Shown: positions 19,727-59,445 of the stretch, in pieces
How the letters are laid out: each line of letters opens with the position of its first letter
Numbering within the stretch: position 1 is the first letter of the stretch
Origin: a phage
Length of the DNA: 64,000 nucleotides
Direction: 5' to 3' (one strand)
Sequence record: PV467749.1
The notes under the pieces: model-generated
What the model saw: the letters and a program-made list of their open reading frames with translations, nothing else
The model's database searches: none
What the model was told of the DNA's origin: nothing
Made by a program: the position numbers and the translations under genes

Positions 19727-19731
19727 TGTAC

Positions 19732-20418: not shown

Positions 20419-20524
20419 TACTACATCAAGACGAAACAGTCACTAACCCACCGGGTGCCGAGATCCGTCTATTAAATGATTCAGTACTGAAAAAGTAACG
20501 GGGAGTTATTATCTCCCCGCGTTG

Positions 20525-20746: not shown

Positions 20747-20832
20747 TTTATTTTCCTCATTACCAGGGAGAACCATTTCTCCCTTTGATGTAAACCATTA
20801 TACAGTACTGAAAACTAATTGCAAGTACTTTT

Positions 20833-21093
20833 TCAATATTGTTTGTCGTCGTCTTCCTCGATGAATTGACCGACGAAATGATCTACTTTCGCTTTGAGGC
20901 TTTTATAATCTTCTTCTACTTCCTTTAAACGTTCCTGGTAGTATTCCAATGCTTCAAGATACGCCGCCTCAGCAGTTTTTGCACGCATGGCTAAATTCAT
21001 GCCACGCGTTTCATCAAATAGCCAATAACCATCGGTGCACTGGCTAATAGATAATGTCTTGCTTAGTGCTGTATAGCTAATTACTTTACTCAT
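20833..21093 (-). CDS. Hypothetical protein
   Basis: Track ORF 86 aa. Confidence 0.5.
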   Translation of the reverse strand: MSKVISYTALSKTLSISQCTDGYWLFDETRGMNLAMRAKTAEAAYLEALEYYQERLKEVEEDYKSLKAKVDHFVGQFIEEDDDKQY

Positions 21094-21150
21094 TAGATAA
21101 CCCTCAGTAAAGGCGGGAACTATTACCCGCCATTATCTCAGTACTGAATA

Positions 21151-21390
21151 TTACATTCCAACCATTGCAGCACGGATCGCAGTAGTGCTATATTTGAATC
21201 CGTCCGGCGTTGTAGTAGTACCGTTGGCTTTTAATCTGCGGTACATACATTCCGCAGCAATATCTTTAGTTCTACTTTGTGCGATGCAACTTTGTGCAAG
21301 CCGATACAATGACTCACCGTTATTAATCCAAAGGCTTACATTCCAATGAGTTTTGTTTTTGTGTCCGTTGTAAGTTTTAGTACTAGCCAT
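21151..21390 (-). CDS. Hypothetical protein (paralog of 23196..23435)
   Basis: Shares KNKTHWNVSLWINN...PDGFKYSTTAIRAAMVGM. Confidence 0.55.
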   Translation of the reverse strand: MASTKTYNGHKNKTHWNVSLWINNGESLYRLAQSCIAQSRTKDIAAECMYRRLKANGTTTTPDGFKYSTTAIRAAMVGM

Positions 21391-21480
21391 TTTTAAATCC
21401 TCGTTTGAGCGGGGAACCACTCCCCGCCTTGATGTAAAGTATTATACGCTTTTAAACTTAGTTTACAAGTACTTTTTAAA

Positions 21481-22092
21481 TTAATATTCGATTGATTCCA
21501 CTACGCCATCAATAACATTGAATTGATATTCGTTACCCTCAATCAGTGCAGTAATGTTTTCAGTAGTGAATTGATCCTCATATGCATTCTCTAAATCACG
21601 GTACAACTTACGAGATAATTCACGGATCGCATCAGTCAGTAAGTTTTCCAGGTCATCAGCAAGTGCCGCTTGTTTTACAGTTAAATCAGTGTAGCGAGTA
21701 TCAACGCAACCGCTTACCGTGTTTTCGTGTGCGTAGCGAGAGTGTGAACGTTCTACACTCATTGCCAAATCATCTTCATTCAACAAGTGACGGATTGAAC
21801 GATATTTCGTTAACGCCTTAACCTTGCGTAAAAACTTCTCAGCGTCAACGTGGTTAGTACTGATTGATGCACCGTCACCTTGCGACCAAAAACCACTGTA
21901 TTGCAATTCAGCTTCATCTATGCCGTATTCTGGTAGTACTGTTTCTTTATAGTACTCGATAACGCCCTCAGCAAAGAAATTATCCTCACATGAACGCTCA
22001 CGATCCCGAACCAGTTCGATAGCCGCCGTTTTTTGTTCTGCGTTCAGTTCAGAAAAAGCCATAACAAAAGTAGTAGTAGTGATAGTTTTCAT
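21481..22092 (-). CDS. Hypothetical acidic protein
   Basis: Track ORF 203 aa; contains GFWSQGDGASI; family not recognised. Confidence 0.55.
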   Translation of the reverse strand: MKTITTTTFVMAFSELNAEQKTAAIELVRDRERSCEDNFFAEGVIEYYKETVLPEYGIDEAELQYSGFWSQGDGASISTNHVDAEKFLRKVKALTKYRSIRHLLNEDDLAMSVERSHSRYAHENTVSGCVDTRYTDLTVKQAALADDLENLLTDAIRELSRKLYRDLENAYEDQFTTENITALIEGNEYQFNVIDGVVESIEY

Positions 22093-22316
22093 TTTGTAAC
22101 CCTCATTCAGTAGTTGATGTAAGTATTATACGCTTTTAAAAACATTTGTCAAACTATTTTATCAGGGGAGTTTTTCGTGTGCCTTACTCCTGGGCTACTT
22201 AACGGGAAGTTACTTATTTCGTTCCCCGTCCTGATGTAAAACATTATACGCTTATTGAGATAGTTTGCAAGTACTTTTTAAAAATAGTTTTCAGTACTGA
22301 ATAGTAAAAAAAAGTA

Positions 22317-22345
22317 TTGACAGCATTATCAAGTACTGGCATAAT
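22317..22345 (+). promoter_or_regulatory. Plus-strand early-type promoter
   Basis: TTGACA-17nt-CATAAT; transcript would contain CCCACCGGGTGC and downstream GCACCCTATGGG inverted partner. Confidence 0.5.
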
Positions 22346-22522
22346 ATACCCCATGACAACAGCTAACCCACCGGGTGCACAATTGTAACTATACTAAACT
22401 AATTTTTCTATAGATACACTCCCGCACCCTATGGGCTACGGCTTATCTGCCAATGAATACATTATGCCAGTACTGACAAAATAAGTCAATACCGGCAATT
22501 GTAAATTTTTCAAAAAATATGA

Positions 22523-22753
22523 TTATACTGCAATCGCGTCCAGGCTGTAATAATAATAAGTGCCGTATTGGTGTACTTTATTACCTTTTATTTCAGTACT
22601 GAATGAATCCGAACGATTTGCATATGATGTTAATTTAAAGTACTTTGATTTGCTGATACGTTGCCATACACCACAGATCCGCTGTAAGTAAGTAGTTTTA
22701 TTCGTGGTCGTATCTTTTACGGTTTTAACTTCAGTCATATACATATTAGTCAT
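22523..22753 (-). CDS. Hypothetical protein
   Basis: Track ORF 76 aa. Confidence 0.45.
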   Translation of the reverse strand: MTNMYMTEVKTVKDTTTNKTTYLQRICGVWQRISKSKYFKLTSYANRSDSFSTEIKGNKVHQYGTYYYYSLDAIAV

Positions 22754-22840
22754 TTTTATTACTCCAGGTTATAGGCGGGAAGAGTTCCCGCTCTCGATGT
22801 AAAACATTATACGCCTTTAAACATAGTTTGCAAGTACTTT

Positions 22841-23107
22841 TTATTCAAGTACTGCAATCTTTTTAGTACGGTACACGGTCACGCGGTTGCCCTTTCGGTC
22901 GAGCTTTATTTCTACCACTCGACGCGATACACTATCGGGACTTTTTAAGGCCGCTAACCAGTACTGTAATGATCTGGCGGTACTACGCTTTACAATGGCC
23001 CAACGTTTACCACGTTCCGATTGTACGCCCATATCTTTAAACGTTGCCCCGTCCTGGCGTGCGGCGATCCGAGCTTGTTCACGCGTCGCAAAATACTTAA
23101 TATTCAT
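22841..23107 (-). CDS. Hypothetical protein (paralog of 10859..11263)
   Basis: Trimmed to MNIKYFATREQARIAARQDGATFKDMG. Confidence 0.55.
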   Translation of the reverse strand: MNIKYFATREQARIAARQDGATFKDMGVQSERGKRWAIVKRSTARSLQYWLAALKSPDSVSRRVVEIKLDRKGNRVTVYRTKKIAVLE

Positions 23108-23195
23108 GCTGTTGCCCTTATCGTTGGTGTATGAATAAAACACTATTATAAAGTACTATCCCCGTGCAATAGTACTTTAAATAAATTCTATTCTA

Positions 23196-23435
23196 TTACA
23201 TTCCAACCATTGCCGCACGGATCGCAGTAGTGCTATATTTGAATCCGTCCGGTGTTTTATCTTGTCCAGTCTGTTCTAAAAATAACATCATATGACGGGC
23301 CGCATCATTGCGATTAGTGCTATCGTTAATAAAGTCCTGGGCCAACCGGTATAATGATTCATCGTTATTAATCCAAAGGCTTACATTCCAATGAGTTTTG
23401 TTTTTGTGACCTAAGAACATTTTTGATTTAGCCAT
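23196..23435 (-). CDS. Hypothetical protein (paralog of 21151..21390)
   Basis: Trimmed to MAKSKMFLGHKNKTHWN. Confidence 0.55.
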   Translation of the reverse strand: MAKSKMFLGHKNKTHWNVSLWINNDESLYRLAQDFINDSTNRNDAARHMMLFLEQTGQDKTPDGFKYSTTAIRAAMVGM

Positions 23436-23528
23436 TTTTTTAATCCTCTTATATAGTGGGGAACTATTCCCCACCTGATGTAAAACATTATACGCTTTTA
23501 AACTTAGTTTGCAAGTACTTTATTAAAC

Positions 23529-23891
23529 TTATTTGTAAATTTTGCCACTTTCTACCCATACCAGGAAACGAGGCATATTATCCCATGCATCTTGCTTTAA
23601 GTTTAAGCCGTGCAATTCCTCAGTTGTTGCCATGCCTGGGACTGGTTTACTATACACCGAGAATTTTTCGCCCATGTACTGATAAACCATCGTCAAATCA
23701 CTGGCGATCATCTTATGGATCATCGCATCAAGCATCACGGTCGCGGCGTATTGTTCACGCTTAAGCGGCAGCATTTTAATCAGTTCGCGGTATGCGTCAA
23801 TGTGAGTTTTAACCGTTGCCGCCGGAAGATCTTTCATCTCGTCGCGGAAGTTAACCAGGTTAGCAATAATTTTGGTGATTTGAGTCGCCAT
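23529..23891 (-). CDS. Hypothetical protein
   Basis: Track ORF trimmed to MATQITKIIA behind RBS. Confidence 0.5.
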   Translation of the reverse strand: MATQITKIIANLVNFRDEMKDLPAATVKTHIDAYRELIKMLPLKREQYAATVMLDAMIHKMIASDLTMVYQYMGEKFSVYSKPVPGMATTEELHGLNLKQDAWDNMPRFLVWVESGKIYK

Positions 23892-24199
23892 CGTTTTAAT
23901 CTCTCTTAAAAGTGAGTTAGGAGCGTTTCCCCCGTCTCGATGTAAAACATTATACGCCTTTAAACATAGTTTACAAGTACTTTCTACAAATACTTTTAAA
24001 ATAGTTTTCTTTCTATATAGGGAAACTATCATTCAGTACTGAATCAACCAAATCACTACTACACCCCGTAAAACGGCCTCAATCGCATTCTAACGCATTA
24101 TTACACCTAAGCTATACATTTGCACCATTCTAATCATTCCAGTGCGTTACGGGCCGTTTAAACGCGTTAAATTATTTTCAATTATTTTGTTTTTAGGTA

Positions 24200-24227
24200 T
24201 TGACTCAGTACTAAAAAAGCGTATAAT
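24200..24227 (+). promoter_or_regulatory. Plus-strand early-type promoter in ORF-free region
   Basis: TTGACT-16nt-TATAAT then tactacatagacgcgagaaag. Confidence 0.5.
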
Positions 24228-24415
24228 TACTACATAGACGCGAGAAAGCGGATACCCCAGGGGGTGCGGAATTGTGCCCAAAATTCAAGATATAAAAAAA
24301 GGATACACTCCCGCACCCTAGCAGGTAAACGCACTTTCTCAGTACTGAAATATAGTACCATAGTCCGGCCCAGGATAGCAAGCAAATTAATTAAAACTTT
24401 TTTGCTTCCAGGGTA

Positions 24416-24443
24416 TTGCTTTATTTTTTCAGTACTGTATAAT
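24416..24443 (+). promoter_or_regulatory. Plus-strand promoter candidate
   Basis: TTGCTT-16nt-TATAAT then agttccatcaagtcgagaaag and CCCACCGGGTGC. Confidence 0.45.
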
Positions 24444-24540
24444 AGTTCCATCAAGTCGAGAAAGACTCAAGCCCACCGGGTGCATAGTTACGCCCAAAAT
24501 TCAGTACTGAAAAAATTTTTAAAAATATCCGTCCAGGTCG

Positions 24541-24569
24541 TTGACATTGCCCCCAGTTTATAAGATAAT
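24541..24569 (+). promoter_or_regulatory. Plus-strand promoter candidate
   Basis: TTGACA-17nt-GATAAT. Confidence 0.4.
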
Positions 24570-24666
24570 GATTCCAGATTCAGAAAAATCTAACACCAGA
24601 TACTGCGGGGAAACTATCCCCACGCGGTAGGGGAACTATTGGAAAAAACAAAATAAAATTTTGATT

Positions 24667-24794
24667 TAGCCGTCTATACTTCCAGACGTGTAACCATCTA
24701 GCCGTTTAGCCGTCCAAACGTCTAGCCATCCAGCCATCCAGAAATCTAGCCGTTTAGCCGTCTAGATGGATAGCCATCTTTACTTCCAGACTTC
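24667..24794. repeat. Tandem degenerate 8-bp repeat array (consensus TAGCCRTC, ~16 units)
   Basis: Strict 8-bp phase: tagccgtc tatacttc cagacgtg taaccatc tagccgtt tagccgtc caaacgtc tagccatc cagccatc cagaaatc tagccgtt tagccgtc tagatgga tagccatc ... Confidence 0.6.
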
Positions 24795-25875
24795 TGGAGG
24801 GCTAGACATATCTACGCCCAAAATCCATCCAGGGTAACTACACCCAAAATCCGTCAGTACTATACCATAGATCTATCTTTTGAAAGGGAGTATTCAGTAC
24901 TGCCATCATAGCCCTCACTATGTTACCCTAGGAGGATGAAGACTATCATGTAGTACTGAATACTGTTAGAGGGAATCCACCAGCTTGTGCTGGTGGCATA
25001 ATGCTTTAGATTAAAATCAGTACTGACACCATTCTGTTAATATCAGTACTGTTATTACGATTTTCATATGAGGTTCAAAAAGATGTACCACCACAGGAGG
25101 AACTATCTTTTCTGTACTGTCTCACGACAGGAGGTAGAGTAAATGAATTGTTCGCAGCAACTCATCTCTCTATGTAGAACATTATACAGTACTGAATCAT
25201 AATGTCAATAGCTTTCTTTCATTATTCAGTACTGATATTCTTGAGAACTACCCGACTACAAACATCATTATATCCCACAAATCATAAACGTCCCAACGTA
25301 AATTTCAACTTTCGAAGAACCAACTTTTATTTCATAGGTACTCCAAAATTTTTAGGATCGAGATTTAGGATGGAGTACTAACCAACTTTTTGCTGGAGCC
25401 TCAAGGGGTAATTGAATTTTACCCCGAAGGGTAAAAGGGTAATTGAAATTAAGGTGAAAGTAATAATTCAGTACTAATCATTGCGTGATTACTTTTGATT
25501 ACATTTGATGTAATTTGCAAAATGGAAAAGGAGCTTGGAAACTACAAAGTACGGCAGACTTCCTCTGCCTACTTAGTGACATATCGACACCTTCAGTACT
25601 GAATACTTTTAGGGCAGTACTGAATCCTTCCCTAGCATTCTTGAGTAATCTTGTCTATAATAATCAGTACTGAATCATATATAATCATTCTGTGATTCTA
25701 CGGTGCTCATATAAATGTTTATATATGATTACTTATGACTACATATGATTACGGGGTTTAGCCTGGGGAGAATCCTAGTGATCGCATTTGTCCAGGCTGA
25801 ATTTTAACAATTCTTCTAATTGTTAAAGCCTGTCCAATGCTTTCCCTGCGGAGCTTCCCCTGTCTATATGTTGAA

Positions 25876-48972: not shown

Positions 48973-49623
48973 TTACATATTATATAATGTGAATGCAGTC
49001 ACTTTACCAGTTGTTGTTAGTTCATTATAAAGATACTCCAAGATTCTCGCACACTCTAAGTATATCTCGATATCATCATGAATAAGTGAGTACTGAAATA
49101 GCTGTTCTTCAGGTAATTTGTATTGACTTCCTTTTAATGAATTGAGAATATCTTTCACATCATCAAGTACTGGGTAAAGTACGAAATCTTCATCATATTT
49201 TGAAGCAATAAATTCAAATCCACCACCATCAGTACTAGATATACCAATCAGTACTTTATCAATCAAGTTAATGTTTATATAACGGTTGTGATTTGGGTGA
49301 ATTGAAATCTCAAACATACGAGTACTGTTACAATCAACATCAATATACAAATATACATCATTGAATTTATAAGTTAAACAACCGTACTCAAGAAAATCAG
49401 AACAAATAATTGATGAGTTTTTTCTTGTCTCTGCGTAATGCATCTTGATATTCTTTTCACGCATAAGTAATTCGAACTTTGCACTAAACTTGCCACCAGC
49501 AAGATAGTTAGTATTAGGACGTTTGTAACTTGCAACTGGTCGGTGGGATGATGTAAAGTATTTTTTTGTGAATCGTTTCTGTTTAGTGAAATATTCTTGA
49601 TAGAACTTACTTCTTTTATTCAT
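48973..49623 (-). CDS. Hypothetical protein inserted between family C members
   Basis: Track ORF 216 aa on the opposite strand; shares the bidirectional hairpin at 48946-48965. Confidence 0.55.
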   Translation of the reverse strand: MNKRSKFYQEYFTKQKRFTKKYFTSSHRPVASYKRPNTNYLAGGKFSAKFELLMREKNIKMHYAETRKNSSIICSDFLEYGCLTYKFNDVYLYIDVDCNSTRMFEISIHPNHNRYININLIDKVLIGISSTDGGGFEFIASKYDEDFVLYPVLDDVKDILNSLKGSQYKLPEEQLFQYSLIHDDIEIYLECARILEYLYNELTTTGKVTAFTLYNM

Positions 49624-49700
49624 GAGTACCTCAATTAAATCGCTGTAAAATTGTACATTATAAAATGATTAAATAAAGTATAACACAAGGAGATTTTATC

Positions 49701-50825
49701 ATGTTACCTTTCGTATTGTTATTTGATTATGGGAACGAAAAACAAGAAAGTTCTTATGATGTTAGTGTATATGGAAACAATAACTACATTTTAAATAAAC
49801 AAACTGGAAACCTTTTTGCATCCGGTGCTGCGGCATTCATGGGTGATAACACAGTTAAGTATTATATTACCCAAATAGAATCAAATGTTCATAGCTGTGA
49901 GATAGGTTTCCTATCATCATGGATAATTAAGAAGGACAAAACTGTTTTCATTTTAGGAAACAAAAGCAGTATAGGATTAACTGGTTCGACAACATCATGG
50001 TTCGAAATTACAAATTTATTTTCTGCTGTTCCTGAAATATGGGACAACCTATTTGAATGTAAAGTTCAATTGGGATATAACTGTATACGTGTTATGACAC
50101 CACTAGGATCAATCTATGCGATTGGTACAAACACTTATGGTGCATTGGGTACTGGTACTACATCCTCATCAACTTCGTTCGTTAAAAGTGGTGCTGTGGA
50201 TGCTGTACGCATGGAATCAACAGAACGTTCAGTGTTCTATCAAAACAGTTCTGGACAATGGTTTGGATGTGGTGATAACACATATGGTATACTAGGTCTA
50301 GGAACTACCGCGAGTCGTGTAAACTCATACACCGCACCAGTATGGACTAATGCAGAAGCTGTTAGCTTCTCTAACCGTGGGATCATATACAGCCTCAATG
50401 GTACTCTATACTCATGTGGTGACAAAGTTAATGGTCAGCTAGGGGATGGATATACACAAAGCATAGACGCTGCCAGGAGCACACCATACACCATAGGAAC
50501 CGCATTCCAAATTGGTAAGGCAATAACATCAGCTACACAAGCATCAGCCAACGTATTCATTGGTAAAGATAATAAGTTCTATGGTACTGGTAGTATTGCT
50601 GCTGGTATAAATGGTAGTACTAGTGCTGCATTAAGTAAAGTTACTGCGTTATCAGCAGCACTACCACCTGACATTACATACAATGATATTATAACATTTA
50701 ATACAGGGACCGTAACTTTTATTCAAGCAAAAGGACAACTATATTATGTTGGTAGAAGAACTTACATAGATAATAGTTCAGACGTTACCACACAGTTCAG
50801 TGTAATTGGTGGCTTAGATAATTAA
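49701..50825 (+). CDS. RCC1-repeat-like protein, family C member 16
   Basis: MLPFVLLFDYGN; GDKVNGQLGDGY, GDNTYGILGLGT; different upstream region. Confidence 0.65.
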   Translation: MLPFVLLFDYGNEKQESSYDVSVYGNNNYILNKQTGNLFASGAAAFMGDNTVKYYITQIESNVHSCEIGFLSSWIIKKDKTVFILGNKSSIGLTGSTTSWFEITNLFSAVPEIWDNLFECKVQLGYNCIRVMTPLGSIYAIGTNTYGALGTGTTSSSTSFVKSGAVDAVRMESTERSVFYQNSSGQWFGCGDNTYGILGLGTTASRVNSYTAPVWTNAEAVSFSNRGIIYSLNGTLYSCGDKVNGQLGDGYTQSIDAARSTPYTIGTAFQIGKAITSATQASANVFIGKDNKFYGTGSIAAGINGSTSAALSKVTALSAALPPDITYNDIITFNTGTVTFIQAKGQLYYVGRRTYIDNSSDVTTQFSVIGGLDN

Positions 50826-50830
50826 AATTA

Positions 50831-50860
50831 ATCCAGTACTATTATAGTACTGGATTTTTT
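50831..50860. terminator. Bidirectional terminator at end of family C array
   Basis: ATCCAGTACTattatAGTACTGGAT then T6; lies between convergent genes. Confidence 0.55.
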
Positions 50861-50861
50861 A

Positions 50862-51233
50862 TTATAACATACGTTTTTTACGAATAGTATTGTGGATATT
50901 TTTTAAGTAGTTCACACCTTTACACAACCCATAAAATACACCAGCACATACACCAAATGCAGGTATCATACATGCAAACATCGTTATCAATTCCCACATC
51001 TCCATGCCATCTTGATTCGGTCCAAGGTCAAAGATAACAACCGAAACCAAACCTGTGATACTTAGCATATAATATGCCATGAAGATAATAAAAGAAACAA
51101 TACCAACATCAGAGCGAACTGAATTTAGCATATTATATACTGGGGTTACACAGAAGTAATACAATAACCAAATCAAAGAACCTAAACTAAACACAATAAT
51201 AGTAATGATCGAAAATATTTCACGATAACTCAT
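50862..51233 (-). CDS. Family D small polytopic membrane protein
   Basis: Track ORF 123 aa; 3-4 hydrophobic segments; basic C-terminal tail. Confidence 0.55.
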   Translation of the reverse strand: MSYREIFSIITIIVFSLGSLIWLLYYFCVTPVYNMLNSVRSDVGIVSFIIFMAYYMLSITGLVSVVIFDLGPNQDGMEMWELITMFACMIPAFGVCAGVFYGLCKGVNYLKNIHNTIRKKRML

Positions 51234-51234
51234 T

Positions 51235-51597
51235 TTAGTTCCTCTTACCTAAACGCTCATGGATTTCGGAAATCTTATTATACATCCATGCCAGCAACTC
51301 AACGGATGCACAGAGAATAACCACACACAGTGTTAGTGAACATACCATAATACCAAATGTTATAAAATTCGAACTCGATGTTAATAATGCAACCAGCATT
51401 AGAATAAAACCAAAATTGAATGCTGTACTCAACACAGTATATGCTGGACTATATCTCCTTTGTATTACATCATATATATTTGATAATGGTCGCTTATGGA
51501 AGTACTTCCCAATGCACACGAATGCATTCAGTGAGAAGATAAATGTATACGCCATTACCATTAATTGACCAATAAAAGATAATTCAATATTATTCAT
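51235..51597 (-). CDS. Family D small membrane protein
   Basis: Track ORF 120 aa; hydrophobic segments. Confidence 0.55.
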   Translation of the reverse strand: MNNIELSFIGQLMVMAYTFIFSLNAFVCIGKYFHKRPLSNIYDVIQRRYSPAYTVLSTAFNFGFILMLVALLTSSSNFITFGIMVCSLTLCVVILCASVELLAWMYNKISEIHERLGKRN

Positions 51598-51598
51598 G

Positions 51599-51970
51599 TT
51601 ATCCTCGTTTGCGGTATTTGATGCTTTGGTGCATTCTCTGAAAATGTGGAACTAATACATATTGTACGGTTTGCCAAATTACCATCAGATTATGGACAGC
51701 ACCACCGAGTAGACCAAACACTACACAGATAATTGCCAGTACTGGATCACCATCTACCATACCCCATTTGAATATATGTAAAATCCATACAGTGATAAGT
51801 AGTAATAAACTAATCCAATACGTAGTAAAAAATCCTGCATGTAATTCATAGTCATCAGCAATTTCATCGTATACGGTTTCCAAGAAGGATACACAGAAGA
51901 ACTTGCCAATAATAATAATTGTACTAATAAACAACATAGCAGTTAATATAATAAGTGCAATTTCCATCAC
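51599..51970 (-). CDS. Family D small membrane protein
   Basis: Track ORF 123 aa. Confidence 0.55.
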   Translation of the reverse strand: MMEIALIILTAMLFISTIIIIGKFFCVSFLETVYDEIADDYELHAGFFTTYWISLLLLITVWILHIFKWGMVDGDPVLAIICVVFGLLGGAVHNLMVIWQTVQYVLVPHFQRMHQSIKYRKRG

Positions 51971-52281
51971 ATCCCTCGTTTACGCTTTTGATTGCGTCTA
52001 AATTCGGTTAGCCCACGACTAATCGGTGGCATCAGACTACATAAAAAAATAACAGTTGTTGGTAATAACATGAAGTCAATCATTGCTGTATTAACAGGTG
52101 GATCACATACCAAATAATACAAACAAGTAATACTAATTATGGTTGACCCAATAAAAGGAATACAAAATTCTTTTATCTGTTTTTCAACATAATCAAACAT
52201 CTTCAATACAAATAAAAATCCAACCCAACACATAATAAAATAGAATGAATAAAGCGTGTAAATCAATGTTACGATATCCAT
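51967..52281 (-). CDS. Family D small membrane protein
   Basis: Track ORF 104 aa. Confidence 0.55.
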   Translation of the reverse strand: MDIVTLIYTLYSFYFIMCWVGFLFVLKMFDYVEKQIKEFCIPFIGSTIISITCLYYLVCDPPVNTAMIDFMLLPTTVIFLCSLMPPISRGLTEFRRNQKRKRGM

Positions 52282-52619
52282 TAGTACCTCGCATCAGGAA
52301 CTTTAGCACGTAATTTATGAACGACTGGGAACAACAACAAACTTACATATGCAATAGTTGAACCCCAATAGAATACTAATATAATTGGTTCACCATTGGA
52401 ACGGAACCCTCTACTAATCATTGAGTAGTGAATAATAGGCATGAACATCGCCATACCAAACCATGCGTGTAATTTTAATTGCAGCATGTTATCAGAGATG
52501 AATACTGAAATTGGTCGTTTGAAGAACCACATCAGAAAGTAGAATCCAGCACTAAGGATATAGTACATAGTACTAACTTTCATATACCACGGCAGTAAGT
52601 GTAAAAAATATTCCATCAT
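52281..52619 (-). CDS. Family D small membrane protein
   Basis: Track ORF 112 aa; C-terminal KLRAKVPDARY. Confidence 0.55.
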   Translation of the reverse strand: MMEYFLHLLPWYMKVSTMYYILSAGFYFLMWFFKRPISVFISDNMLQLKLHAWFGMAMFMPIIHYSMISRGFRSNGEPIILVFYWGSTIAYVSLLLFPVVHKLRAKVPDARY

Positions 52620-52963
52620 TCCTCCGGTATCTTGTTTCGAAGTTCAATCATAACACAACAAAGTTTAATGGTCAAGTAAAAAACTACACATATCATACCC
52701 AATGTACCGTAAACTGCGGAGAATGCTGGCAGTACCTTTCCTGTGAGTGTTGCTACAATACATGCTATCAATGTTGATGCAAACAACGATTGATTAATGA
52801 AAGAATTCATAAAATCTTCACCATTACGCTTATAGAATTGTCGTTTAAAATACCATCCTAGAAACATAACTACCCAAAATGTTACATAACCTGTTAGAAT
52901 AATCCCTGCAATTGAATGTGCAACAGAACTACTCTTTAAAAACTCAAGATAAGATTCAAACAT
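52616..52963 (-). CDS. Family D small membrane protein
   Basis: Track ORF 115 aa; C-terminal ELRNKIPEE. Confidence 0.55.
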   Translation of the reverse strand: MFESYLEFLKSSSVAHSIAGIILTGYVTFWVVMFLGWYFKRQFYKRNGEDFMNSFINQSLFASTLIACIVATLTGKVLPAFSAVYGTLGMICVVFYLTIKLCCVMIELRNKIPEE

Positions 52964-53301
52964 TAGAAGTCCCCACGAATTTTTGCTCTACCATTAATGA
53001 TGAGATTAAACAAGTATATCAGCACCCAAATTAGTAATCCAAGGAATACAATATATTGTGATATTGAGTTCAACTGTGGATTAGCACAATAAATTAAGTG
53101 TGCGATAAGACCAACAATTGCAAACATACCTTGGATAATAGTGAAAAGAAGTAGTGAAATGTTTCCATCTGGATACAGTTTGAAAACGATTTTCTTTTTA
53201 AAATACCATAGTACTACAACTAGTGCATGATAAAAGAAAAAACCAAACAGATAAATCAAAGTAATACTAAGCATTGTATCTGAATTAAAAAACTCAAGCA
53301 T
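52963..53301 (-). CDS. Family D small membrane protein
   Basis: Track ORF 112 aa. Confidence 0.55.
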   Translation of the reverse strand: MLEFFNSDTMLSITLIYLFGFFFYHALVVVLWYFKKKIVFKLYPDGNISLLLFTIIQGMFAIVGLIAHLIYCANPQLNSISQYIVFLGLLIWVLIYLFNLIINGRAKIRGDF

Positions 53302-53368
53302 ATCGTATCTCCGGTGGTGAATATTAAGTTATAGTACTACACTATGGTAGTACTGTCAATACATGTAA

Positions 53369-54142
53369 TTAAATTTTCTCAAGGAACATGTTTTCTGCCA
53401 TTGACTCCCAATCATATGGAAATTTATTATACAGACCAGCGATCAGTACTGGCATACGCAGAGAAGGTGAACGCAGCTTTTCTTCGTTGTTCAGCATCCA
53501 GTTTAAGATAGCTTTACAACCATTTTTATTAACCCCATTGTTCTCAAGAATATTAGTCTTGTTCATGATGTTCTCAATGTGAATCATAACTTCTTCGTTA
53601 GTGAACAGTTGAAGATCAACAAAGATACTACGAGTAATCAGTGCATCAATGTGTGGTGCTAAACTGCTTTTACCTTTAGCAATCTGTGACAGGTTTTTGT
53701 TCGTCAGGAAGATTACCTTCCCACGGAATTCAAACTGCTTAGGAATACCCTGCTGTTCCAGGTACTTCCCAGAAGTTGCATAAGATACAACCCGCTTCTC
53801 TGAAGTATCCAGTACTGCTTTGAGCAAGTCAATGTTGGTTTCATCGCTGAAGATATCAACGTCATCAAGTAACAGTACTGAAGCGGCATGACGTGAACGA
53901 TACAGTGCTTCGTACAAACCCATAGTGGTTACTTTACCGCTGATCTTTTTGTAGTCGATTTCAAAGTTATCATCAGCTTTCTGTAAACGCTGGTCAACGT
54001 TGTAAGTTTTACCAACACCACCTTTACCAGATACAATCAGGGAATTGATTGAATTAGCTTGGGTATCAAGTAAACATTCCAAAGCTGCCATCATGCTGTT
54101 GAAGTTCTTTTCGATTTGGATTGCTTTCTCTGTACGGGTCAT
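53369..54142 (-). CDS. P-loop NTPase
   Basis: Walker A SGKGGVGKT (KGGxxGK[ST] form) and Walker B-like VLLLDDVD; promoter with -35 inside upstream terminator hairpin. Confidence 0.55.
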   Translation of the reverse strand: MTRTEKAIQIEKNFNSMMAALECLLDTQANSINSLIVSGKGGVGKTYNVDQRLQKADDNFEIDYKKISGKVTTMGLYEALYRSRHAASVLLLDDVDIFSDETNIDLLKAVLDTSEKRVVSYATSGKYLEQQGIPKQFEFRGKVIFLTNKNLSQIAKGKSSLAPHIDALITRSIFVDLQLFTNEEVMIHIENIMNKTNILENNGVNKNGCKAILNWMLNNEEKLRSPSLRMPVLIAGLYNKFPYDWESMAENMFLEKI

Positions 54143-54180
54143 GTATTCATCCTCTCGTCTTGATGAAATAATTATAGCAA

Positions 54181-54210
54181 AAAGGGCTGACCGAAGTCAA
54201 CCCTTTTTTC
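54181..54210 (-). terminator. Terminator-promoter module between HNH and NTPase genes
   Basis: Minus: GGGTTGACT-TCGG-TCAGCCC, T-run, then TATAAT 18 nt after the TTGACT inside the stem. Confidence 0.6.
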
Positions 54211-54610
54211 TTTCAATCAAACATAGTCTACCAGAATGTACCATGCGATGGTGATTAGAACAAAGAATCATACACTTTCGAATTTCATCTTTGATAGCAT
54301 CTCGACTTTTACTGAACATAGAACTTGGTGTATGTTCTTTGGTATTAGGGTCAAGATGGTGAAAGTCTAAACATTCTGGATACTTCATCATACAAACACT
54401 ACAACCATAAAATGATTTAACTCTGGTCATGAAATCTTTATTTTTTCTTTTGATTTCTTCAAGTTTTTTGACATCAGTTTTTTTATTTCTGGTTTTCTTA
54501 CTGGTAATATTACTACAACCTTTGCATGTATTTCTATGTTTCCCAGTATCACTTCTTATACCAAATTCACTAATGTCTTTTTCAATATTACACGTGATAC
54601 ACTTCTTCAT
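54197..54610 (-). CDS. HNH endonuclease
   Basis: N-terminal Cys pairs (CITC, CKGC); C-terminal CLDFHHLDP...ILCSNHHRMVH; stop codon lies inside the terminator stem. Confidence 0.7.
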   Translation of the reverse strand: MKKCITCNIEKDISEFGIRSDTGKHRNTCKGCSNITSKKTRNKKTDVKKLEEIKRKNKDFMTRVKSFYGCSVCMMKYPECLDFHHLDPNTKEHTPSSMFSKSRDAIKDEIRKCMILCSNHHRMVHSGRLCLIERKKG

Positions 54611-54912
54611 TGTTTAATCCATTTATTCAACAATGCACCCAACTTCACAATCTCATACCCATCCAGATAGCCATAGGAACACTCAGGTGTTTCATAAGTT
54701 GAACCATCATGGATACCTTGGCATTGGCTTTTGGAACGTTCAAGCAATCGTTGCAGTACTGATACGTCATCAAGAACGTAATACAAGTTAGCATATGGGT
54801 CCGTCACAATACAGTACTTAAACATACCAAATGTATCAATCGATTTTTCAACCTTAGCAAATTGTTTCTTTTCTTTATTATACAGTGCGTACATATTAAT
54901 CTCCACAATCAA
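54607..54912 (-). CDS. Hypothetical protein
   Basis: Track ORF 101 aa; overlaps 3' end of upstream kinase-like gene by 17 nt. Confidence 0.45.
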   Translation of the reverse strand: MIVEINMYALYNKEKKQFAKVEKSIDTFGMFKYCIVTDPYANLYYVLDDVSVLQRLLERSKSQCQGIHDGSTYETPECSYGYLDGYEIVKLGALLNKWIKQ

Positions 54913-55267
54913 GTTTAACTAACTTACCACCCAGATACCCAAAGTTTTCTGGCTTCGCATCTGAATAGAAGAAGTCAGTACTCAACTCTGAATCCAATGC
55001 TAAAGCACACAACTCCACCCAAAATAAACCCCTATGTTGTACTGGCTTACAACGTTTCTGTACAGTTACTAGTCCAGTACATGATGACCACAACGTAGGG
55101 CAGATACCACTATCACTACGCTTGGAGTACTGCATCCAAGAACGTTCATTGAGGTTAGCTATCATCCCTGTTAAGAATAGCTTCCAACTTTTAAAGGTTG
55201 GAATCTTGATAGCATATTCCCCAATGAGTATGACAGTTCGGGTTGCACCTTTCAAATCTATATTCAT
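54896..55267 (-). CDS. Small protein-kinase-like protein (motif-level)
   Basis: AIK lysine motif, SDAKPENFG catalytic-loop-like segment, terminal KLDCGD (DFG-like); ends right after the DFG-like motif. Confidence 0.4.
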   Translation of the reverse strand: MNIDLKGATRTVILIGEYAIKIPTFKSWKLFLTGMIANLNERSWMQYSKRSDSGICPTLWSSCTGLVTVQKRCKPVQHRGLFWVELCALALDSELSTDFFYSDAKPENFGYLGGKLVKLDCGD

Positions 55268-55276
55268 ATTTTTTAA

Positions 55277-55528
55277 TTAGAAGAACACAAACCAAGTCCA
55301 GAATAAATTCCACACTACAAATAAAGACATAGTGGTTTTATGTACAATATCAGCAGTACTGGTCCATCCTCCACCGTGTCCTATTCCATTTATGAATAGA
55401 ACTAAGAACAAGATACCATTTACTACAATAGTACATAGTAAGTACACAAACACATTCCATGCAAGTTCAGGGGATACTAACGTAAATGGTAAAACAATTA
55501 GTAGTATTAGAACTAATAAAATTTTCAT
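55277..55528 (-). CDS. Small membrane protein
   Basis: Track ORF 83 aa; strongly hydrophobic, Trp-rich C-terminus. Confidence 0.5.
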   Translation of the reverse strand: MKILLVLILLIVLPFTLVSPELAWNVFVYLLCTIVVNGILFLVLFINGIGHGGGWTSTADIVHKTTMSLFVVWNLFWTWFVFF

Positions 55529-55556
55529 TTATCGCCTCACTTAATTAACGTGACAA

Positions 55557-55733
55557 TTAGTACGAATCAGATTCCCAGTACTCGATTGCTTCTTTCAGCA
55601 ATTCTTTAGCACGTTGTTTTGCAATGCGAGCGGGTAACAGATATGTGTACATTAACTGACGCTTCACTTCATTCAGTGAAAGCTGTTCATGGTACAGTGC
55701 ATCCATCAGTCGATTACGAGTACGTAGTTTCAT
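55557..55733 (-). CDS. Hypothetical small protein (58 aa, not in track)
   Basis: Manual translation MKLRTRNRLMDALYHEQLSLNEVKRQLMYTYLLPARIAKQRAKELLKEAIEYWESDSY. Confidence 0.35.
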   Translation of the reverse strand: MKLRTRNRLMDALYHEQLSLNEVKRQLMYTYLLPARIAKQRAKELLKEAIEYWESDSY

Positions 55734-55744
55734 ATAAGTTATCC

Positions 55745-56299
55745 TTATTTCAAAGAATCATAGTAAGCAGTGTCAAAGATTGGAGTCATAATAACATAGT
55801 CAATACGGTCAATGTAAGTTGAACTCCACATTTCTGGTTTGTCATAAAATTGACGCTCGCGTTCATTCATACGAGTCAGTACTTCTTCCAATTTACTACG
55901 TGAAGCCATCAATGTATTACGCGATCCATAAGTGAAGTACTCAGTCCATTGATATTCATATTCAGTACTGATAGATTGAATAGTACCATCTTTGAAATGA
56001 GCTAAGGCATATCCTTTCTCTACAAAGTTATCAGGTGGAAGAACACTATCTGGATTAGTTTTCAATGCTTTGGTTAACTTTTCTTTAATTTCAGTTAACG
56101 TGCATACTGAACGAATGTTCTTCAGGTTTGATACTTGAAAATCACTGTACTTTCCAAAGAAAAATACACGCCAATCTTTAGGTTCATTATCAGATACGGT
56201 AATATTCGGATGATGGGCGAGTAAACGAAGAAGGCCAGCTTTGTGACCGTTAATGTAGATCTCATGGATGTGGTTAGCAGTTTTCTTAAAAGTAATCAT
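55745..56299 (-). CDS. Hypothetical protein
   Basis: Track ORF trimmed to MITFKKTANH behind GAGGAA RBS and leader hairpin GGGGATGA/TCATCCCC. Confidence 0.55.
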   Translation of the reverse strand: MITFKKTANHIHEIYINGHKAGLLRLLAHHPNITVSDNEPKDWRVFFFGKYSDFQVSNLKNIRSVCTLTEIKEKLTKALKTNPDSVLPPDNFVEKGYALAHFKDGTIQSISTEYEYQWTEYFTYGSRNTLMASRSKLEEVLTRMNERERQFYDKPEMWSSTYIDRIDYVIMTPIFDTAYYDSLK

Positions 56300-56374
56300 G
56301 ACAATTCCTCGATTGTGGGATGAGAAGTTCATCCCCTTGATAAACATTATACAGTACTGAATGAGTTTGTCAAC

Positions 56375-56755
56375 TCAAAATAAATTCATTTCATGTGCGT
56401 ATTGTGGTTCAAGATGCGATAAGTTTTTGAAGCTTTCTTTCAACTCAGCATCATCTACATACACCGTGCCTGGTACATTCCCCATAGTGAAACCTACCCA
56501 CACAGTCATGTCACCAGTCCCTAAGCGTGGCATTGATAGCGAACCATCAGGTGAAACATCAAACGCTACACTGAAGTCATCAGTAACAACGTCAGAACCA
56601 TTTTCGAGAATAATACATCCACTATCTTTAAGCTTCTGAATGTGGATAGCAGCCTCTACAGCACGTTTGAAGTTATAGTAAGACTCTTTATCCTCAAACA
56701 TTGATTGTTTAATCAGACGCTTGTTTAGCTCGGTTACTTTGTGCATTTGACGCAT
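56375..56755 (-). CDS. Hypothetical protein
   Basis: Track ORF 126 aa. Confidence 0.5.
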   Translation of the reverse strand: MRQMHKVTELNKRLIKQSMFEDKESYYNFKRAVEAAIHIQKLKDSGCIILENGSDVVTDDFSVAFDVSPDGSLSMPRLGTGDMTVWVGFTMGNVPGTVYVDDAELKESFKNLSHLEPQYAHEMNLF

Positions 56756-57012
56756 TACTTATCCATCTCCCACAGTTGTAGAATTTCATAAGAGCCTGGT
56801 GGTGCTGGATTCCTGATCTCAGGGAATTGAGTACTTTTAGGATTTCCACCAGCATTAAATTCGTCAAGTAATGATTCCAGTTCGCGACGATCCTGAACAA
56901 CATAAACACAATCACCTGAACCTTCTTCGAGAATCATTTCACTTCCTGCACAATCCCATACTGTTGAGATACATAGAATCTCTTTTGTATTTTTATTACG
57001 CAATGCAAACAT
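56755..57012 (-). CDS. Hypothetical protein
   Basis: Track ORF 85 aa. Confidence 0.5.
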   Translation of the reverse strand: MFALRNKNTKEILCISTVWDCAGSEMILEEGSGDCVYVVQDRRELESLLDEFNAGGNPKSTQFPEIRNPAPPGSYEILQLWEMDK

Positions 57013-57020
57013 AGCACCCC

Positions 57021-57389
57021 CTATCGATTTGGCATTTTATCTCGTAATCTAATGAGATAATCAACCACAGACCATGTTGAAATGAAAGTGATATAAGTAC
57101 CGAAGAATCCTACCAGAATAAAGGCAACAAGTGTACTCCCATTTGGATCTTCAGCTTTAATACCGATGATACCATCAAATACAGTGAAAAATGTAGACAT
57201 ACACGTTAAACAGATGTACATCACCAATAAGAATTCATGTTTCAATGATGGATATAAACGGTCAAAGAGTTTATAAAATTTAAAGTACAGTAGGAGTATA
57301 CCAACAAAGACATAGAAAGTAAACAGTGTTGTTATGATATATGATATTAAATTTAAATTATACATCTCAACGCTCCGGTAGATTATCAC
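57021..57389 (-). CDS. Family D-related small membrane protein
   Basis: Track ORF 122 aa; FKFYKLFDRLYP motif; C-terminal RLRDKMPNR. Confidence 0.55.
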   Translation of the reverse strand: MIIYRSVEMYNLNLISYIITTLFTFYVFVGILLLYFKFYKLFDRLYPSLKHEFLLVMYICLTCMSTFFTVFDGIIGIKAEDPNGSTLVAFILVGFFGTYITFISTWSVVDYLIRLRDKMPNR

Positions 57390-57714
57390 GTAATGTTTTG
57401 ATTCGATTATACAATTTCATTGCTACATTTCCAAATAAACCAAAACCCATTACTAAAATGTATGCGATGATCATAGTAATAATTACAATAGTACCTAGAC
57501 TGTAATGTACTGCACTGATACCCATTATTGTTTCTACAATGATGTGAGCAACAGAAATAATCAAAAGTACTACTACAATTGGATGATTTGGATACATTCG
57601 GTTAAACAATGTTTTGTACTTAAAGAAGTACAGTACTCCACCAAATAAGAAGTACACAATGTAGATTGATGCAACTGCATAAGCAAACGCATTAGTGTAA
57701 AAAATCATTATCAA
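57367..57714 (-). CDS. Family D-related small membrane protein
   Basis: Track ORF 115 aa; FKYKTLFNRMYP; C-terminal LRDNLPER. Confidence 0.55.
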   Translation of the reverse strand: MIMIFYTNAFAYAVASIYIVYFLFGGVLYFFKYKTLFNRMYPNHPIVVVLLIISVAHIIVETIMGISAVHYSLGTIVIITMIIAYILVMGFGLFGNVAMKLYNRIKTLRDNLPER

Positions 57715-57717
57715 TCC

Positions 57718-58056
57718 TTACTTTTCAGGGATTTTATTACGCCACTCATCGATGCGATGAAGCAGTTTAAAGAGCAAAAATATCGGAACAGTAGCTATCA
57801 TAGTAGCAATTGTTAGTAATGTCAACACCGATACGAGATTTAATTCGTCAGTACTATATCCACATACCAGTGCTTCAATTATCCCCCACGTACATACACT
57901 GAACATCAAAAATGAAATTGGTGCATCGTAGTATATGCGTTGATACAAGGTCGTGTATCGGAAGAATGCAATAATGTAACAAAACATGTAATACACCCAA
58001 ATTAACGATACTACATAAAATGATACCTTATTAATTAATTCAAAATGATGTTCCAT
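57718..58056 (-). CDS. Family D-related small membrane protein
   Basis: Track ORF 112 aa; FRYTTLYQRIYY; C-terminal WRNKIPEK. Confidence 0.55.
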   Translation of the reverse strand: MEHHFELINKVSFYVVSLIWVYYMFCYIIAFFRYTTLYQRIYYDAPISFLMFSVCTWGIIEALVCGYSTDELNLVSVLTLLTIATMIATVPIFLLFKLLHRIDEWRNKIPEK

Positions 58057-58065
58057 TTTTACCCC

Positions 58066-58368
58066 CTACATATATTCTAAGAATAATGTATTAGCTTCGT
58101 CTATGTTCTTAAGATAATACATGTAATACAGATTTGGTTGTCCGTCTTTTGAACTCAAATCAAAGTACTTTAAACTATGCACCTTCATGACAAAAACAAA
58201 TAATGACTTAAAACCAATCTCACCGTACTTAATAAACAGTTCATCTAAATGAATGTAACTCTTAGTTTCAGATAATTCCTTCACATCATCTTCAATTTCT
58301 TGTAAGCGAAGTTTACCGATTAAGTTTTCAAATGAACGCATGATGTTGTTCCTTATGCTGGTACACAA
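58066..58368 (-). CDS. Hypothetical protein
   Basis: Track ORF 100 aa. Confidence 0.5.
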   Translation of the reverse strand: MCTSIRNNIMRSFENLIGKLRLQEIEDDVKELSETKSYIHLDELFIKYGEIGFKSLFVFVMKVHSLKYFDLSSKDGQPNLYYMYYLKNIDEANTLFLEYM

Positions 58369-58766
58369 TTTTTTATAATGAATACACGTTTCATGAATGA
58401 ACTTTCATATACGTACTTCAGTTTACCATTTTCACGCATACGATGAAACACATCTTTACCGCTAGTACTCCATGTTGAACCAGTCTCTGCATCAACATTG
58501 TTCATTACACCAGATGTTACATTCACCCCGTACTTGAAGCTAAAGGTACTACCTTCTTCTACTAGAGGGATTGGTGTACTACGTTCATGTTCCAGTACAA
58601 GTTTACTGCCGATGATGTTGTACGAAGTTAGCTTGCATTTTAAAACACCCATCTCTTGTGCAGTTGGGTAATTCTTCTCAAATAAATCAGATACTTCATT
58701 TGCATAACAAACTGAACTAATCATAAGAAGTAATGAACTGATAGAACGGAAAATAACTTTTAACAT
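58353..58766 (-). CDS. Secreted protein candidate
   Basis: Signal-peptide-like MLKVIFRSISSLLLMISSVCYA; GGAGG RBS; promoter TTGACT-18-TATAAT overlapping upstream terminator. Confidence 0.55.
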   Translation of the reverse strand: MLKVIFRSISSLLLMISSVCYANEVSDLFEKNYPTAQEMGVLKCKLTSYNIIGSKLVLEHERSTPIPLVEEGSTFSFKYGVNVTSGVMNNVDAETGSTWSTSGKDVFHRMRENGKLKYVYESSFMKRVFIIKNCVPA

Positions 58767-58802
58767 GTTTGCCTCCAGTAGTTGATGAAATGATTATAGC
58801 AA

Positions 58803-58832
58803 AAAGGGCCGACCGAAGTCAACCCTTTTCTT
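58803..58832 (-). terminator. Terminator-promoter module
   Basis: Minus: GGGTTGACT-TCGG-TCGGCCC, T-run, TATAAT at correct spacing, GGAGG RBS. Confidence 0.6.
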
Positions 58833-59207
58833 TTATATTTTACATGTCATGTCTGGTTTTGGCTTTTCATTCTTTGGCTTTTCAAATGGATTTGGCTTAG
58901 GGGACTTTTTATCTTTGTCATCTTTAGCTTTCTTTTTGTTTTCTTTTTTATCCGATTTGTCAGCTTTGTCTTTCTTATCTTTTGAATCTTTGTCAGCTTT
59001 AGATTGTGGTTCCTCACATACAGCAGTTTTTGGCTCCGGCATATCACATGAGTTATCCACTGGTTTAATGAACTCTTTACAGTTGTAGAAGTATAAACTT
59101 TCATTGGTAGTAAGATTGTGGAATCTAAAGGTATTTTCACCATTAGTATATACTTTCTTAGTACTCTCAATATCATTACACATTGCAACTGTGTCACCGG
59201 AATTCAT
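58833..59207 (-). CDS. Hypothetical protein with Lys/Asp-rich low-complexity C-terminus
   Basis: Track ORF 124 aa; preferred over overlapping same-strand ORF 58847..59197 by context. Confidence 0.4.
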   Translation of the reverse strand: MNSGDTVAMCNDIESTKKVYTNGENTFRFHNLTTNESLYFYNCKEFIKPVDNSCDMPEPKTAVCEEPQSKADKDSKDKKDKADKSDKKENKKKAKDDKDKKSPKPNPFEKPKNEKPKPDMTCKI

Positions 59208-59445
59208 GCTCGATACCTATTACATCCGACTTACGTTCAGATAGTATTCCAGACGTATATCGATCTTTGTTATCAAATGCATTGAACCCTATAGTTTTAT
59301 TATTGTCATGTACCAATCCTCTAGTGTAAGACTTGGTATAGAACTCACCGTTTCTAAACTCCTGTCTAGCAATGGAGCACTGGTATTCAGTACTATAAAC
59401 TATATCAGTAAACAATACAAGTGAAAATAAAACATATTTAAACAT
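59194..59445 (-). CDS. Secreted protein candidate
   Basis: Signal-peptide-like MFKYVLFSLVLFTDIVYS. Confidence 0.5.
   Translation of the reverse strand: MFKYVLFSLVLFTDIVYSTEYQCSIARQEFRNGEFYTKSYTRGLVHDNNKTIGFNAFDNKDRYTSGILSERKSDVIGIEHEFR

Follow-up and report, generated by a model that had tools for sequence, protein, structure and literature searches.

The stretch analysed here, called the window, is 64,000 nucleotides of phage DNA (sequence record PV467749.1). It carries ten small genes, named D1 to D10, on the minus strand in two clusters of seven (cluster 1, D1-D7) and three (cluster 2, D8-D10), which an earlier reading of the sequence, hereafter the original prediction, had described as paralogues encoding small polytopic membrane proteins. 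All ten open reading frames (ORFs) were found where it had placed them. We compared the 7.2-kb region holding both clusters with public records. It matches Escherichia phage WPEC3 (98.4% identity) and about 35 further Asteriusvirus-type (121Q/PBECO4/phAPEC6-like) jumbo phages of 350-385 kb, and the window itself comes from an E. coli jumbo phage of this type; the public records label the genes 'hypothetical protein' or, occasionally, 'membrane protein'. The starts annotated in WPEC3 trim D3, D5, D8 and D9 by 1-8 codons, and with them neighbouring D genes abut or share a one-base overlap. The ratio of nonsynonymous to synonymous divergence (dN/dS) between the D genes and their 121Q orthologues is 0.10-0.40, which argues that D1-D10 are real genes under purifying selection.

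Pairwise BLASTP connects only D8, D9 and D10 (expectation value, E, 1e-9 to 1e-12) and, weakly, D6 with D7 (2e-3). Since this was insufficient to establish paralogy, we gathered homologues and compared the profiles of their orthogroups. The homologues fell into eight orthogroups, one holding D8, D9 and D10 jointly (G8/9/10) and one for each of D1 to D7 (G1 to G7). In profile-profile alignments with hhalign, 14 of the 28 orthogroup pairs scored above all 56 reversed-sequence decoys, and the links exceeding the decoy maximum join all eight orthogroups in a single network, with G4 the weakest. The strongest links are G2-G3 (score 50.5, 95% probability), G5-G6 (score 48, 95% probability), G8/9/10-G6, G1-G3, G8/9/10-G7 and G2-G6. 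Hidden Markov models (HMMs) built with one orthogroup left out at a time recovered all ten D proteins (E 2e-11 to 1.5e-3); among 396 decoy ORFs, the top score corresponded to an E of 0.04. Searched against the 353 ORFs of the window, a clade-wide HMM matched exactly D1-D10 (E <= 3e-18), the next best ORF having an E of 0.066. The family alignment contains no conserved stretch of 7-10 columns. All ten proteins combine a length of about 100-130 aa, three transmembrane (TM) helices, an invariant Phe, a basic C-terminal tail and the genomic position described below, and so do the members found in phages RaK2, Munch, BF, XbC2 and CBB. The hhalign network and the leave-one-out models, together with the predicted topology and a structural model of D6, thus bear out the description of ten paralogous small polytopic membrane proteins. 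We are highly confident that D1-D10 form a single family, with the architecture and distribution set out below.

The sequence motifs proposed for the family needed revision. A shared basic motif at the C-terminus holds for five of the proteins: the strict form R-x-K-[IVM]-P-[ED] occurs at the end of D5, D6 and D10 only, and a relaxed form adds D8 and D9. It does not hold for D7, where it is degenerate (GRAKIRGDF), nor for D1-D4, whose tails are of another basic type (H-x-x-I-[KR]-x-[KR]-R or KRKRGM). The signature of the family is instead a juxtamembrane motif, [GW]-x-[YF]-F-[KRHC], at the cytoplasmic end of TM1, with [YF]-[DPN] a few residues on; its Phe is invariant across 65 sequences. The loop motif F-(K/R)-(F/Y)-x-x-L-(F/Y)-x-R-(L/M/I)-Y, which the original prediction had assigned to cluster 2, was found in D8-D10 but is not specific to that cluster; by sequence comparison, this is the form that the family-wide juxtamembrane signature takes in these proteins.

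Exactly three hydrophobic segments were detected in 87 of the 92 family members, where three or four had been proposed, and TMHMM also gives 3 TM helices for the CBB homologue in the supplement of the CBB paper (PMC5259590). Topology, which the original prediction had singled out for checking, is consistent among members: in all 87 three-segment proteins the positive-inside rule is obeyed by an N-out/C-in orientation, which we therefore predict. Summed over these 87 members, lysine plus arginine residues number 259 in loop 1 and 397 in the C-tail, compared with 35 in the N-terminus and 46 in loop 2, and the C-tails hold 123 aspartate plus glutamate residues; loop 1 and C-tail together exceed N-terminus and loop 2 in every member (656 versus 81 summed). 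The AlphaFold model of D6 (mean predicted local distance difference test 73, predicted template modelling score 0.41) shows a short N-terminal helix followed by three long helices (residues 2-10, 12-44, 51-77 and 79-111). Conservation peaks in the predicted cytoplasmic parts, with a relative entropy of 1.18 in loop 1 and 1.73 in the C-tail compared with 0.57-0.81 elsewhere. From a short N-terminus in the periplasm, the predicted layout runs through three TM helices to a conserved basic tail in the cytoplasm; the juxtamembrane motif follows TM1 on the cytoplasmic side, and the periplasmic loop is short and either acidic or neutral.

The family extends well beyond one genus. A first exhaustive search with a ten-sequence profile returned only 22 close relatives and suggested a genus-restricted family, a view overturned by local HMM searches guided by synteny. 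RaK2 carries eight members after a gene for an nrdC.10-like ATPase and one more upstream, scoring 24-46 bits against at most 6.5 for other ORFs. A common layout, nrdC.10 followed by an array of ~110-codon genes for three-TM proteins and a convergent array of RCC1-like genes, with at least one further member a few kb upstream, was found in phages Munch (Salmonella), fENko-Kae01 (Klebsiella), BF (Serratia), XbC2 (Xanthomonas) and CBB (Pectobacterium) and in one metagenomic contig; tblastn also places the family or layout in Erwinia and Yersinia phages and in Cronobacter phage GAP32. Copies number 5-13 per genome across Asteriusvirus, RaK2, Munch, fENko-Kae01, BF, XbC2, CBB and the metagenomic contig. 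With E values of 1e-10 to 3e-33, the RaK2 paralogues correspond one-to-one with G6 (twice), G7, G5, G4, G3, G1 and the upstream G8/9/10 type, and their order is nearly that of the orthogroups in the window. The duplications therefore predate the split of the genera and each paralogue has been kept since; judged by these matches, the paralogues are ancient and individually retained. For distant genera, paralogue-for-paralogue matching was not possible. A clade-wide profile search of 5.8 billion proteins returned only proteins of similar size without Pfam domains, on jumbo-phage-sized or short metagenomic contigs. Two matches labelled E. coli sit on phage-sized contigs of ~350 kb, and none of the matches has an evident bacterial chromosomal context.

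The counterparts of these proteins in PHROGs are groups 27618, 26405, 33258, 27396, 19046, 19454 and 19285, labelled 'unknown function', and 16874, labelled 'membrane protein'. The D proteins match their own PHROG at E 1e-46 to 1e-61, except D8 (phrog_19285, weak, 4e-4) and D2, for which no significant PHROG match was obtained. Whereas PHROGs holds the same proteins in at least eight unlinked groups, here they are united in one family and followed over the RaK2-like clade. The family is not described in the genome papers on phAPEC6, Sharanji, fEgEco12, UE-S1, JP4, CBB, Eneladusvirus and RaK2, nor in a comparison of 224 jumbo phages. It was thus previously unrecognised as one, and it is wider and older than the original prediction could see.

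Within Asteriusvirus the order G7-G6-G5-G4-G3-G2-G1 is strictly kept. Cluster 2 varies in size, with one member in A4, three in the window and at least three confirmed in JNE01, and tandem duplications affect G7 in 121Q and G4 in JNE01. Some isolates have members that are split or truncated, namely 121Q gp228/229 (L004, 16985-17300) and CBB gp439/438 (L012, 7315-7667), and the Salmonella phages SD-1, SD-2 and SD-6 give partial D6 matches only. Synonymous divergence (dS) between the window and 121Q, followed over 48973-58341, is mosaic, from ~0 to 1.9: it is ~0-0.18 at 55277-56299 and in D5/D6, and 1.0-1.9 in the ATPase gene, D1, D3, 48973-49623 and 56755-57012. This pattern indicates block-wise exchange of alleles between related phages, as read from dS. 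As the blocks of high dS also contain genes from outside the family, the mosaicism belongs to the region as a whole. In dN/dS the family does not stand above its flanking genes (0.08-0.32), and neither dN/dS nor dS between the window and 121Q gave a signal of family-specific diversifying selection or of an arms race.

The genes of each cluster are tightly packed, the Shine-Dalgarno sequence of each downstream gene sitting within the last codons of the preceding one and starts and stops overlapping or abutting. Both operons are preceded by a near-identical 33-mer, GGGTTGACTTCGGTC[A/G]GCCCTTTTTGCTATAAT (chance expectation 0), in which a GC hairpin with a T-run, resembling a terminator, overlaps a near-consensus sigma-70 promoter (Table 1). 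These cassettes recall PeSL, elements of T4-type phages that combine a terminator with a promoter (Arbiol 2010, PMC2839356; Comeau 2014, PMC4122927), with which they share a GC-rich hairpin and T-run over an early sigma-70 promoter, near-identical repeats and a mosaic region. PeSL were, however, described in Straboviridae, whereas the cassettes of the window belong to a RaK2-like jumbo phage, and this particular cassette occurs in the window only twice. At the position equivalent to the hairpin that ends cluster 1, the Munch annotation has a terminator. The window as a whole contains 29 sigma-70 sites matching at least 11 of 12 positions, compared with an expectation of 4.5 +/- 1.9; all but a few lie between genes, on the coding strand. 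They are found mainly at 6,000-25,300 on the minus strand, where many perfect TTGACA-16-TATAAT sites stand in intergenic gaps before small ORFs; on this pattern, the zone looks like a dense early-gene region.

Several observations on relatives bear on the timing of expression. According to a prediction in the CBB paper (PMC5259590), the homologous block is an early host-takeover region, and the relative PA5oct relies on host RNA polymerase (PMC7318152). In PA5oct, which is the only relative with RNA-seq, tblastn found no family match, and the PA5oct paper mentions no membrane proteins (PMC7318152). A T7 gp0.7-like kinase gene adjoins cluster 2 in phAPEC6, 121Q and Munch. The family members of phAPEC6, gp012c-017c and gp028c-029c, are not among the 62 virion proteins of that phage. 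From the excess of sigma-70 sites, the twin cassettes, the predicted early block of CBB, the use of host RNA polymerase by PA5oct, the adjacent gp0.7-like kinase and the absence from the phAPEC6 virion proteome, we infer that early, non-structural expression of the family is reasonably probable.

Table 1. Members of the family and associated features in the window.
Feature	Coordinates	Strand	Description	Leave-one-orthogroup-out HMM (E)	Further evidence
D1 (G1)	50862..51233	-	123 aa, 3 TM; last gene of cluster 1	1.2e-9	RaK2 orthologue 3e-33; dN/dS 0.20
D2 (G2)	51235..51597	-	120 aa, 3 TM	4.6e-7	dN/dS 0.38
D3 (G3)	51599..51967	-	122 aa from WPEC3-annotated ATG, 3 TM	9.9e-7	Orthologues RaK2 4e-19, Munch 5e-16; dN/dS 0.10
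D4 (G4)	51967..52281	-	104 aa, 3 TM; most divergent of the family	1.5e-3 (best decoy 0.055)	hhalign barely above decoys; RaK2 orthologue 3e-20, identical array position
D5 (G5)	52281..52616	-	111 aa (WPEC3 start), 3 TM; C-terminal LRAKVPDARY	6.5e-4	RaK2 orthologue 8e-25; dN/dS 0.14
D6 (G6)	52616..52963	-	115 aa, 3 TM; hub of the profile network; C-terminal LRNKIPEE	8.7e-10	
D7 (G7)	52963..53301	-	112 aa, 3 TM; first gene of cluster 1	2e-9	RaK2 orthologue 5e-15; dN/dS 0.27
D8 (G8/9/10)	57021..57365	-	114 aa (WPEC3 start)	2.2e-11	BLASTP to D9 2e-9
D9 (G8/9/10)	57367..57708	-	113 aa (WPEC3 start)	1.2e-5	BLASTP to D10 2e-12
D10 (G8/9/10)	57718..58056	-	112 aa	5.7e-6	D10-type orthologues at upstream locus: RaK2 3e-12, Munch 6e-13, XbC2 5e-11
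nrdC.10-like P-loop ATPase	53369..54142	-	Directly upstream of cluster 1; non-member		Matches phrog_1250 and, weakly, AAA_16
Hairpin + sigma-70 promoter cassette (PeSL-like)	54171..54203	-	Before the operon of ATPase and cluster 1		TTGACT-18-TATAAT, 11/12, extended -10 TG
Second cassette copy	58793..58825	-	Before the operon 58353-58766, 58066-58368, D10-D9-D8		
Weaker promoter-like site	53331..53359	-	In the 67-nt gap upstream of D7		TTGACA-17-TACTAT, 10/12; consensus match only
Strong bidirectional terminator hairpin	50830..50856	.	Between D1 and the convergent RCC1-like gene; ends cluster 1		12-bp stem

In all RaK2-like genomes that were inspected, the nrdC.10-like ATPase gene comes directly before the array, and it is probably co-transcribed with cluster 1. 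Homologues of nrdC.10 occur in about 1,300 phage records, T4-likes included. A functional link between ATPase and array was rejected: their adjacency, although kept throughout the clade, does not by itself point to a common mechanism, and T4-likes carry nrdC.10 without the array. Of the genes that follow nrdC.10 in T4-likes, nrdC.9 encodes a soluble protein and nrdC.7 one with a single TM helix, and neither product matches the family HMM. We also considered whether a ~780-bp ORF interrupting the array in BF, XbC2 and CBB might be a second ATPase gene, and rejected this, as its product does not resemble the nrdC.10 ATPase. The product is a conserved soluble protein of ~260 aa, encoded in the middle of the array in BF (L009, 13133-13933), XbC2 (L011, 14378-15160) and CBB (L012, 7681-8451), and at 7175-7957 of L015; it occurs in Eneladusvirus and Mimasvirus-type phages.

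Convergent with cluster 1, a long plus-strand array of ~1.1-kb RCC1-repeat 'DNA condensation' paralogues runs to 50825 (e.g. 49701-50825). This family adjoins the three-TM array in all genera examined; its array in WPEC3 lies at L006 27311-41877, and homologues are phAPEC6 virion proteins. Close to it in WPEC3 (L006, 23024-27208), about 20 consecutive genes on one strand measure 174-228 bp (~57-75 aa), with one exception of 660 bp, and are probably a further tandem paralogous family. A segment of ~2.7 kb in WPEC3 (L001, 9282-12033) with a 1.5-kb endonuclease gene, small ORFs and denV is absent from the window at 54143-54196; this indel, between the ATPase gene and an HNH endonuclease gene (54197-54610), is a homing-endonuclease site polymorphism. 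Other small envelope-directed proteins are encoded in the direction of cluster 2 at 58353-58766, 59194-59445 and 55277-55528. Two have signal-peptide-like N-termini and one is a hydrophobic protein of 83 aa; none matches the family HMM. The fEgEco12 label 'lytic conversion lipoprotein' for the homologue of 59194-59445 is unsupported, as PHROGs gives 'unknown function' only. No informative family matches were obtained for the neighbouring genes.

The function of the family was approached by sequence and fold searches. Pfam, NCBIfam and PDB sequence searches with the D proteins returned nothing above threshold. Nor did PADLOC, where the best hit, for one of the ten proteins, was a generic two-TM effector with E 0.084; a fold search with the D6 model reached at best E 1.6 among viral structures and 6.3 in the PDB. 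Homology to a characterised exclusion protein was detected by neither Pfam, PHROG, PDB sequence nor fold searches. Of the roles that the original prediction had suggested, namely superinfection exclusion, lysis timing and the blocking of membrane-associated defence, none is backed by a match in PADLOC, Pfam, NCBIfam or annotated PHROGs. In the explanation that we favour, host sigma-70 RNA polymerase would transcribe both operons early from the hairpin/promoter cassettes, and coupled translation would bring the paralogues jointly into the inner membrane of the host shortly after infection. In the membrane they would work as non-redundant modules with a cytoplasmic face in common, and each paralogue would have its own partner by virtue of its divergent transmembrane and periplasmic surfaces. 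The outcome would be a host inner-membrane function altered for the benefit of the phage, by takeover or exclusion at the membrane. T4 Imm, P22 SieA and HK97 gp15 offer a plausible functional analogy: they are small phage proteins of the inner membrane that are produced before infection or early in it, a location and timing that sequence and promoters predict for the D proteins. They are, however, encoded by single genes, whereas the family of the window forms conserved ordered arrays, and no homology to them was detected. Taken as one package of family, early expression and membrane takeover or exclusion, this explanation has in our judgement a little less than an even chance of being right; the functional part by itself, a role in host takeover or exclusion, is a tentative proposal and more doubtful than probable.

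Several points weigh against this explanation. None of Pfam, NCBIfam, PADLOC, PHROGs, the PDB or the fold searches yielded a homologue of known function. The topology is a prediction from hydropathy and charge, and the promoters were recognised by consensus matching alone. Virion mass spectrometry easily misses membrane proteins. Conservation at the extreme C-terminus may partly reflect a nucleotide-level constraint from the embedded Shine-Dalgarno sequences, but the best-conserved Arg of the C-tail lies ~20 nt upstream of the stop codon, too distant to be explained in this way. The split and truncated members imply that single paralogues are dispensable, at least in the laboratory. Finally, deep conservation across hosts suits a core phage function equally well.

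Such a core function could be exerted by a single hetero-oligomeric inner-membrane complex (a ring, channel or scaffold) serving the phage's own cycle, with the paralogues as its subunits. It may anchor replication or assembly to the membrane or conduct ions or DNA; translational coupling may set its stoichiometry and the conserved cytoplasmic face may be the common interface. A gene order G7-G1 that is fixed in Asteriusvirus and nearly so in RaK2, overlapping start and stop codons with Shine-Dalgarno sequences inside the upstream coding sequence, and the retention of every paralogue under purifying selection since before the genera split all agree with this; hosts ranging from Enterobacterales to Xanthomonas further suggest a phage-intrinsic role. 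A complex of defined subunits nevertheless sits uneasily with a copy number of ~5 to 13, a cluster 2 of differing size (A4, window, JNE01), the tandem duplications in 121Q and JNE01, split or truncated members in viable phages and the lack of paralogue-for-paralogue correspondence in distant genera, and we regard it as rather unlikely. Bolder still, and decidedly unlikely, is the idea that RaK2-like jumbo phages build from the paralogues a hetero-oligomeric inner-membrane machine, a core organelle that would define their clade, with the conserved cytoplasmic motifs as its assembly interface and the gene order setting the order of assembly; it may, for example, be a holin-like timer of several subunits acting on the membrane-tethered endolysin, or a membrane platform for genome entry or replication that is set up early. 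The variable copy number, together with a mosaic, indel-rich region containing homing endonucleases and PeSL-like recombination cassettes and other envelope-targeted small proteins nearby, would also suit fast-evolving counter-defence or superinfection-exclusion genes, each tuned to one host defence effector or to the entry route of a rival phage. An arms-race role against strain-specific defences is disfavoured because the paralogues are deeply conserved across genera and hosts and evolve under ordinary purifying selection: individual paralogues are kept between E. coli and Klebsiella phage genera, the dN/dS of the family does not exceed that of its flanks, and the high-dS blocks take in non-family genes. 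With no PADLOC or anti-defence match besides, we consider this quite unlikely.

Class I holins, exemplified by lambda S, are proteins of ~100-125 aa with three TM helices, an N-out/C-in orientation and a charged, basic C-terminal tail. The architecture predicted here from hydropathy, charge and the D6 model matches this description, and the paralogues might be holin, pinholin or antiholin-type regulators of lysis that accumulate in the inner membrane and then may trigger or delay its depolarisation, thereby controlling the release of the clade's membrane-tethered, signal-arrest-release-like endolysin. RaK2-like endolysins do have an N-terminal TM domain (PMC5259590), and the group is without a convincing holin: Sharanji, JP4, phAPEC6 and CBB report none, and the fEgEco12 'holin' is an HHpred match with E = 2.6. 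Yet in fEgEco12 the family, at ~322-330 kb, is far from both the lysozyme (118 kb) and the only annotated holin candidate, which is T-like (246 kb), and no lysis gene was present in any flanking region examined. The likeness to lambda S105-type holins in size, predicted TM number, orientation and basic cytoplasmic C-terminus is likewise not accompanied by sequence similarity, an endolysin or spanin neighbour or a Lys-containing dual-start motif. The promoters in front of the clusters are of the predicted early sigma-70 type and differ from the ATAAATA-type late motif reported for CBB and GAP32; holin systems are not known to comprise 5-13 diverged paralogues in one genome; and no match to holin families was obtained in Pfam, NCBIfam or annotated PHROGs. 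A lysis role thus appears highly unlikely. We favour an early membrane function over lysis timing because of the sigma-70/PeSL-like promoters, the predicted early block of CBB and the absence from the virion proteome.

RaK2-like jumbo phages (121Q, PBECO4, phAPEC6, RaK2, K64-1, GAP32, CBB and others) are under development for therapy and biocontrol, and over 80% of their genes lack an assigned function. Since jumbo phages commonly carry arrays of paralogous small genes, the existence of one more will be of little surprise to specialists. Here, ~5-13 'hypothetical' or 'putative membrane' genes per genome become one family with an architecture, diagnostic motifs, a genomic address and a predicted expression class, and a family so defined is tractable for cloning, deletion and interaction studies. 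If its members do act in exclusion, membrane takeover or lysis control, this would have a bearing on the host range of these phages, on the compatibility of phages in cocktails and on the missing holin of the group.

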